A stretch of DNA of 64,000 nucleotides. Source: Eledone cirrhosa. Lineage: Eukaryota. Below, piece after piece: positions 44,268-44,623 of the stretch. The notes beneath the pieces were generated by a model. It did not search any database. It was not told the origin of the DNA and was given only the letters and a program-made list of their open reading frames with translations. Position 1 is the stretch's first letter. Every line of letters starts with the position of its first letter. The position numbers and the translations under genes were made by a program. Location: NCBI GenBank assembly GCA_964016885.1, contig CAXHJY010000872.1, forward strand, positions 11,692-75,691. The letters are read 5' to 3'.

Positions 44268-44301
<34 letters not shown>

Positions 44302-44345
44302 AGAAGAAGTTTATGAAACGGAAATGTGGGTATAAAGAATTTATT

Positions 44346-44462
44346 AGGTAACAATTGTTTCTATAGTGTATGGGTTACCTATACCTCGCTATTTGAATAA
44401 TATAAAAATATTATCATAAACCGAAGGTACACTGTAAGCATACACACCATGTCGTCAGACCT
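44346..44462 (-). ncRNA. Hammerhead with ~90-nt extended stem II
   Basis: AGGT-CTGACGA-c-ATGGTGTGT..ATACACTAT-a-GAAA-CAATTG-TT-ACCT; inside a 20-bp inverted repeat 44296-44315/44494-44513. Confidence 0.72.
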
Positions 44463-44623
44463 TTGTATTGGAATGATATGAAAATATTTTATACATAAAC
44501 TTCTTCTCCATATTTTCTCCGGATTTTAAAACACACTTTATTATACGTTGAGCAATCTCCGACGTCGGTTGACTCCATCCAATGCAACTACTTAGTAACA
44601 TTGGAATACAAATTTACTAATTC

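Follow-up and report, generated by a model that had tools for sequence, protein, structure and literature searches.

The question raised by this locus is to what kind of element the hammerhead-like motif on its minus strand belongs, and whether the C·A opposition at the base of its helix II is a conserved feature. The locus lies within a stretch of 64,000 nucleotides of the Eledone cirrhosa genome (assembly GCA_964016885.1, contig CAXHJY010000872.1, positions 11,692 to 75,691 of the forward strand), hereinafter the window; the assembly is AT-rich, comprises approximately 3.0 Gb, and contains abundant (TA)n repeats. In the preliminary description, which was made from the sequence alone, the motif was taken for a hammerhead, enclosed by a 20-bp inverted repeat next to (TA)n and unrelated to a similar motif located near 31.7 kb. 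The hammerhead assignment is borne out by inspection of the sequence, in which the minus-strand core letters, the palindromic CAATTG of stem III and the C·A opposition are all present. The following features make up the motif:

44346..44462, minus strand: type I hammerhead motif, family A (sequence and descriptor scan)
44362..44451, minus strand: helix II domain of 90 nt, an unbranched bulged hairpin (fold z −3.15; basal-helix covariation in five sister families)
44351..44358, minus strand: palindrome ACAAUUGU, A15.1 to U16.1 (sequence and energy comparison)
44349..44350, minus strand: predicted cleavage site, 3' of U17 (44350) (hammerhead numbering)

The 5' part of the motif, read on the minus strand, consists of AGGT (44462-44459), CTGACGA (44458-44452) and C (44451), and the 3' part of GAAA (44361-44358), CAATTG (44357-44352), U16.1 (44351), U17 (44350) and ACCT (44349-44346). 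The type I core is complete (C3 U4 G5 A6 N7 G8 A9, G12 A13 A14, A15.1-U16.1 and H17), and three helices can be drawn with helix I open, namely a 4-bp stem I (AGGU/ACCU), the long helix II and a 2-bp palindromic stem III; this active fold is not the MFE structure. The predicted cleavage site is placed 3' of U17 in accordance with the established hammerhead numbering. In the descriptor scan, C10.1 (44451) lies opposite A11.1 (44362), and the canonical R10.1-Y11.1 closing pair is thus absent. Given that this feature is lacking, the motif is classified as a non-canonical variant and not as a canonical member, although natural exceptions have been published. The helix II domain is predicted to fold at −25.9 kcal/mol, and only 1 of 200 shuffles folded equally well; among the ten arms tested, four were weaker, with z values of −1.15, −1.44, −1.47 and, for the whole motif, −2.17. 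A local scan with the Rfam hammerhead models produced no match at the motif even at E 10, and the scan of the whole window is dominated by microRNA matches to TA repeats, with hammerheads at 6290-8100 only among the 150 of 381 matches listed. This is a real hammerhead-type motif, for which cleavage is a prediction.

A 218-nt query from the locus retrieved 1,107 first-look candidates from the genome, of which 40 were scored; these 40 other places are 98-99% identical to the query over about 200 nt, and the exact 24-nt tail pattern of the family (family A) has 473 matches in the genome. Longer copies reach upstream into an open frame, which in one locus (L052) comprises 782 codons and ends 417 nt from the hammerhead core. 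The Hydra clade of Penelope-like elements (PLEs) is marked by RWK, DKT, CxCx5C, CxxC and CxH (PMC8557442, section 11). The L052 protein (P0001) contains IRWRT, KADKTSN, YRDD, CNCTKPGTC, CKLCNLE and YCNH: the RWK mark is changed in one residue (RWR), the DKG to DKT change is present, and there is a CxCx5C linker together with CxxC and CxH around E and N and, by eye, no CCHH in the nuclease. The single frame encodes YRDD followed by a C-terminal WYYVG region, as expected of a reverse transcriptase (RT) joined to a GIY-YIG-type nuclease. Pfam and PDB sequence searches gave no name for the protein, which has 12,167 relatives in a representative-protein search; a GIY-YIG match in Pfam was obtained for 1 of 50 relatives of the frame (E 0.003). 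Given that the Pfam search of the 782-codon frame itself detected neither an RT nor a GIY-YIG domain, the assignment to the Hydra clade relies on the motif marks and on by-eye likeness to the published supplement alignment, the trees discussed below having been built with database relatives and not with the named published Hydra proteins.

The arrangement of copies agrees with the known insertion habits of the clade, that is, a unit of less than 3 kb, ends in TA repeats, and both tandem and inverted copies. In one tandem copy (L226), two hammerheads lie 2,986 nt apart, so that the unit covers the whole coding region, and the sequence past the first hammerhead runs directly into the 5' UTR and the start of the frame. 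Identification of family A as a non-LTR retrozyme was ruled out since this tandem unit is 2,986 nt long and protein-coding, instead of non-coding and about 300 nt. The motif in the window is thus the 3' end of a young Hydra-clade PLE. Another family A copy, in L059, adjoins tandem copies of a different reverse-transcriptase frame (1592-3472 and 4498-6372; RVT_1, E 1e-4).

The insertion and its surroundings can be described as follows:

44297..44495, minus strand: 5'-truncated 3' end (3' UTR or pseudo-LTR) of the Hydra-clade PLE, family A (40 near-identical copies; blastn to L226)
44494..44624, plus strand: inverted 131-nt piece of the family A element, made up of the 3' end and of the 5' UTR that follows in the next tandem unit (98.5% to L226:888-1018)
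44269..44299, no strand: (TA)n target microsatellite at the 3' end of the element, (TA)15.5 (repeat search and copy ends)
44624..44754, no strand: TA-rich microsatellite at the other insertion end (repeat search)

The perfect 20-nt inverted repeat (44513-44494 / 44315-44296) and the adjacent (TA)15.5 are present as originally noted; the repeat, however, is not part of the ribozyme and is the overlap of the inverted 131-nt piece with the direct arm. The match of this piece in L226, identified with blastn, is the sequence that follows the hammerhead in the tandem copy. All 40 other places listed match the query only from base 19 or later, that is, they lack the left arm. Among 43 distinct family A 3' flanks, a sample for which an intact stem I was required, 24 end 46-54 nt past U17 and 13 end at 160-165 nt, three run on into a tandem unit and three end elsewhere; 21 of the 43 end 52-54 nt past U17 in TA repeats. 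Both end points occur in the window copy, one in each arm, between TA repeats. Inverted truncated copies and tails have been described for such elements in PMC8557442. The perfect 20-bp inverted repeat beside TA repeats could also be regarded as the termini of a small DNA transposon (MITE) with a chance hammerhead inside. We consider this exceedingly improbable, given that the left arm is missing in the other copies listed, so that terminal repeats are not common to all copies, that this arm continues for 110 nt past the supposed repeat as inverted element sequence, and that the longer copies run into a Penelope-type open frame. The MITE identity is refuted by the comparison of copies and the match of the inverted piece to L226.

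Motifs of this shape were sought in the entire genome by exact match to the pattern CTGANGA N80-110 GAAA CNNNNG TH, with no demand for stem I pairing and with the reversed pattern as the control. Altogether 22,670 long-helix-II motifs were found, compared to 971 for the control; the genome search that had been proposed at the outset, with the pattern CTGANGACN{80,110}TAGAAAN6TH and likewise no demand for stem I, returned 6,374 matches versus 410 for its reverse. The state at 10.1/11.1 is C·A in 6,254 motifs (control 221), which is the commonest single state, A·A in 6,014 (control 76), which is as common as C·A, U·U in 3,801 (control 107) and G-C in 773 (control 35), other combinations accounting for about 5,800 of the 22,670; these are copy counts, and a single family (family B, see below) accounts for 88 of the C·A matches among the first 100 listed. 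Among the fetched loci, the motif types number well above twelve, and their arms measure 80-116 nt. C·A is found in 14 of the 15 distinct family A sequences fetched (a sample biased towards C·A) and in three further motif types (L185-188, L193-194 and L189-190), which were retrieved with patterns demanding C. One family (H) contains both A·A and C·A, and another (D) both U·U and G-C. None of 22 family D motifs has a Hydra-type frame upstream. The family D arm is branched and 93-97 nt long, and the motif often occurs in tandem units of about 740-1,000 nt (L160, L161, L146-147; G000:C1:13844293-13845396), possibly representing a non-autonomous long-arm retrozyme. In L195 (356-422) and L148, two CUGAnGA boxes lie 32 nt apart and have one GAAA and stem III in common, yielding arms of 62 or 94 nt.

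The second motif in the window belongs to family B:

31692..31831, plus strand: family B hammerhead of a second Hydra-type family, with a 9-bp stem I, a 103-nt helix II, C·A, CGATCG and UA (descriptor scan, copies and upstream frame)

This motif is also multi-copy (104 candidates in the genome, 40 scored), and the frame upstream of it in L064 is 31% identical to the family A frame over 452 residues (E 5e-55). The two motifs, described as unrelated, indeed have stems without common sequence, but both are located at the tails of Hydra-type PLEs. The stem II lengths, said to match, are only similar (90 nt here versus 103 nt at 31701). Nor does CTGACGA represent a common core variant: its C occupies the free position 7 and occurs in only 4 of the 20 family B loci fetched (L031-L050), most of the others having CTGAAGA, so that its occurrence in both families is a coincidence at a free position. 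In the family B subfamilies (20 of 66 distinct sequences compared), C·A is constant while the adjacent pair varies among A-U, G·U and G-C. Approximately 230 nt upstream of the family B hammerhead, a degenerate second half-core (TTATTT-CTGAGGT-CAGCAT), apparently an old duplication, is seen at L032:1310, L034:1301, L035:1301, L036:1298, L038:1297 and in L044.

The relationships among the families were examined using the proteins. Ten motif groups could be tied to a Hydra-type frame located 400-1,300 nt upstream. In a tree of the C-terminal 150 residues (150 columns, with a long-branch warning), these ten protein-linked long-arm groups are separated from seven database relatives by a branch with 100/99 support; in a larger tree, one long-branch database protein (P0002) falls inside the long-arm group and a short-arm element of the same genome (L018) outside it. 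Family A branches within a set of families that have A·A (H and C), A·G or U·G (F), U·U (R and G) and A·A (E). Placing families A and B in one clade, a grouping that came from the preliminary description and was evaluated after the larger tree had been inspected, is rejected (AU p 2e-5), and at least six state changes are needed. The arms of families A, H, C, R and F can be aligned with hardly any gaps, and the covariation score of their basal helix II is 0.579, a value reached by none of 500 shuffles (slid controls, 0.10-0.25), in a test that comprises 14 hand-picked rows and a shuffle that ignores relatedness. The 10.1/11.1 position holds a non-standard pair in 12 of the 14 rows. RNAalifold applied to this alignment predicts the basal 7 pairs only, whereas the upper arm folds in single sequences. 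What the protein-linked families have in common is a long, covarying helix II that mostly lacks a Watson-Crick closing pair. A single gain of the long helix II, in the ancestor of the Hydra radiation of this genome, is likely, and behind it the closing position likely drifts among the tolerated states C·A, A·A, U·U and G-C; if so, C·A in families A and B either arose separately or was lost repeatedly. The original assertion that C·A is conserved and not a product of decay is therefore half right: 14 of 15 family sequences and the 6,254 matches speak against decay, whereas the alignable sister families show A·A, U·U, A·G, U·G or A-U. C·A is neither post-insertion decay nor a unique signature.

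For comparison with other organisms, a metagenome scan with a single protein gave no match, and an alignment-based scan retained 77 loci with Hydra-type frames among the best 80 of 314. In 33 of the 68 loci that include the C-terminus (some of them near-duplicates), a hammerhead lies behind the frame; behind the other 35 frames, several of which leave little room, none was found by the descriptor. Helix II is 10-29 nt long in all 33, though the descriptor allowed up to about 145 nt, and the 10.1/11.1 states are U·U in 16, G-C in 10, G·U in three, A-U in two, A·A in two and C·A in none. The Hydra hammerheads in File S2 of PMC8557442 likewise have short arms and mostly U·U, and C·A at 10.1/11.1 is given there for PLE-X1_cBra. 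The closing mismatch is therefore usual for the clade, and C·A has a printed precedent. Compared with its counterparts in relatives found in other organisms, the arm in the window is several-fold longer, and the long arm together with the shift towards A at 11.1 is the mark of the radiation in this genome.

The elements themselves are of a known kind. With the Hydra clade, a group of C-terminal EN+ PLEs that includes Hydra-1_Obim of Octopus bimaculoides (Craig et al., 2021, PMC8557442), family A shares the single frame with RWK-like, DKT, CxCx5C, CxxC and CxH marks, a unit of slightly less than 3 kb, (TA)n as the target, insertion in tandem and inverted form, and a 3' type I hammerhead with a palindromic stem III, in which U17 and a non-canonical 10.1/11.1 (U·U) are common. 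The difference lies in helix II, which is about 10-26 nt in File S2 (about 23 nt, with G-U at the base, in Hydra-1_Obim) and 80-115 nt here, roughly half of the motifs carrying C·A or A·A. The minimal and small-helix-III type I hammerheads of metazoan PLEs described by Cervera and de la Pena (2014; PMC4209133) resemble the motif in their pLTR location, short stem I, palindromic 15.2-16.2 and predicted action as dimers; they have, however, a helix II of 6-8 bp in which G10.1-C11.1 is conserved and one additional base separates 9 from 10.1, compared with about 30 predicted base pairs and no Watson-Crick closing pair here. PLE-X1_cBra from Chara (File S2) has the same CUGAUGA-C ... A-GAAA arrangement with C·A, but its helix II is short (21 nt between the core boxes) and the element is an EN-minus, Chlamys-related algal one. 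A mismatch at the base of helix II in hammerheads that have been shown to cut is documented for the axolotl retrozyme HHR_Amex2 (PMC7229834) and for U10.1-U11.1 variants (PMC3088659); in these, the mismatch is U·U instead of C·A and helix II is short, and HHR_Amex2 resides in 350-nt non-coding repeats. A search of the non-subscription literature returned no account of an 80-110-nt helix II in PLE hammerheads. The present analysis adds the genome-wide count of states, the tree test and the covariation contrast.

Given these observations, the locus is probably the 3' hammerhead of a Hydra-clade PLE, present in a TA repeat as a short insertion that consists of a truncated and an inverted part, and the ribozyme would cut tandem transcripts weakly, mainly when two copies pair via the palindromic stem III. 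Under this scenario, tandem copies of the element would be transcribed through, two hammerheads would pair through ACAAUUGU, and the cut after U17 would free a unit-length RNA holding the whole frame; both the self-cleavage and its dependence on dimers are presumed. Folding predictions suggest that the single window copy cuts poorly alone. The palindrome would form a weak 2-bp stem III in the monomer and an 8-bp duplex in the predicted dimer. The active monomer fold lies 3.8 kcal/mol above the MFE, with a probability of 0.03 for the 15.1-16.1 pair, and in the MFE structure G5-A9 pair with the 3' strand of stem III and C10.1 with G12. The double-hammerhead fold lies 3.6 kcal/mol below two monomer MFEs, yet 3.0 kcal/mol above the dimer MFE; for family H, the active dimer lies 3.6 kcal/mol above two monomer MFEs. 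U17 belongs to the slowest NUH triplet, and a stem I of only 4 bp also counts against strong cleavage. The window energies match the published behavior of weak monomers and better dimers: a schistosome PLE motif has no activity as a monomer and low activity as a dimer (PMC4209133), and for an axolotl U·U-closed motif the monomer is cleaved to 22% and the dimer to a greater extent (PMC7229834, section 15). Since U·U permits more cleavage than any other 10.1/11.1 mispair (PMC3088659), C·A should be slower. No genomic trace of cutting was seen where the 3' stem I flank is matched exactly: T occupies 16.1 in 473 of these 477 places (TT in all of the first 100 listed), and the remaining four are three point mutants and one copy with an inversion junction at the site. 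Given that the ends of copies lie approximately 54 or 160-165 nt beyond the site, the templates span the cut, being either uncut or circular. In one family A copy (L346, G000:C6:75514252), an inversion junction lies within 2 nt of the predicted cleavage site.

The finding that no copies begin at the cut site and all have sequence past it also fits a motif that no longer cuts and in which the long-arm fold is kept as a structural signal, for example, one that the element's own protein binds or uses for priming. The mismatched closing pair of most motifs and the predicted misfolding of the monomer, with C10.1 paired to G12, point in the same direction. We regard such a loss of cleavage as unlikely, however, because CUGAnGA, GAAA, UH and the CnnnnG stem III are kept across families with proteins 31-62% identical (the patterns select for these elements), and because published mismatch-closed and PLE hammerheads do cut, if weakly (PMC4209133, PMC7229834 and PMC3088659). 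Another possibility, advanced in the preliminary description, is that selection has favored C·A specifically, as a non-canonical pair that sets a functional subclass of the long-arm hammerheads apart. In its favor, C·A is the most frequent state (6,254 of 22,670), is fixed in family A and across the family B subfamilies despite the covarying neighbor pair, recurs in three more motif types (with the caveat that C was demanded), shares A11.1 with A·A (54% together) and, unlike what free drift would lead one to expect, is found in none of the 33 outside relatives. Nevertheless, A·A, A·G, U·G or U·U takes the place of C·A in the nearest sisters, families H and D mix states (A·A with C·A and U·U with G-C, respectively), and the counts track copy number, family B supplying most of the first 100 C·A matches listed (88), so that selection for C·A appears improbable.

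A further group of explanations assigns the long arm a switching role. RNA editing is heavy in octopus and squid, and the long arm could make A11.1 an A-to-I editing site, such that conversion of C·A to a C-I pair would release G12 and activate the ribozyme. The A11.1 of families A and B is part of a UAG, faces a C and sits where a long duplex ends, UAG and the A-C mismatch being the preferred ADAR context (PMC10944622), and the predicted inactive fold pairs C10.1 with G12. There is, however, no excess of G at 11.1 (19 family A and B copies versus 21 with the control change A13G, counted by eye in the full lists), the families with A·A or U·U, which make up 43% of motifs, are not accounted for, A-A being the least efficient mismatch according to the same review, and A11.1 is situated at a junction and flanked by duplex on a single side; editing of this adenosine is accordingly a highly improbable explanation. 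A broader version is speculative and improbable: the 80-110-nt helix II would be a regulatory module gained once, whose mismatch-closed junction holds the ribozyme off, with C10.1 capturing G12, until it is released by dimer formation, by the protein of the element or, where the closing position is C·A, by A-to-I editing of the adenosine in UAG. If true, this would amount to a ribozyme gated by host editing in thousands of copies.

Approximately 22,000 hammerhead-type motifs of this shape are present in one genome. Rfam missed the window copy, and searches that reject a 10.1/11.1 mispair, as in PMC3088659, would lose most such motifs. The radiation is a natural series in which the closing position of one scaffold takes the states C·A, A·A, U·U or G-C, and a single family can show more than one of them; accordingly, the importance of the closing pair in natural dimeric hammerheads and the role of PLE hammerheads become testable. 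Since the element and the hammerhead are already of a known kind, the gain is a variant and a test system rather than a new class.

Several other features of the window were recorded. Positions 6027-8306 hold a 467-nt tandem array (3.3 units) and an inverted partial copy, which looks like a non-LTR retrozyme or a pLTR array; its units contain canonical short hammerheads (cores at 7113, 7580 and 8047 on the plus strand and at 6343 on the minus strand) with G-C closing and CTAG in stem III, and match HH9 at E 6e-6 to 5e-5. Near-perfect hairpins with arms of about 35 bp and sub-threshold microRNA scores, likely foldback repeats, are located at 3447-3537 and 24097-24201, and frames of 200-400 codons at 15651-17537, 34081-35286 and 39214-39945 resemble pieces of other retroelements. 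Another hammerhead family, with a helix II of 30-31 nt and TATATA in stem III, is found at 4890 (+), 24223 (+), 25413 (+), 25267 (−) and 19848 (−); its 10.1/11.1 state is A-U, A·A or G-C, and the copies at 25267 and 25413 form an inverted pair. Short type I hammerheads are present on the minus strand at 41516-41547 (G-C, with TGCA) and at 5280-5308 (U·U, with GTAC).
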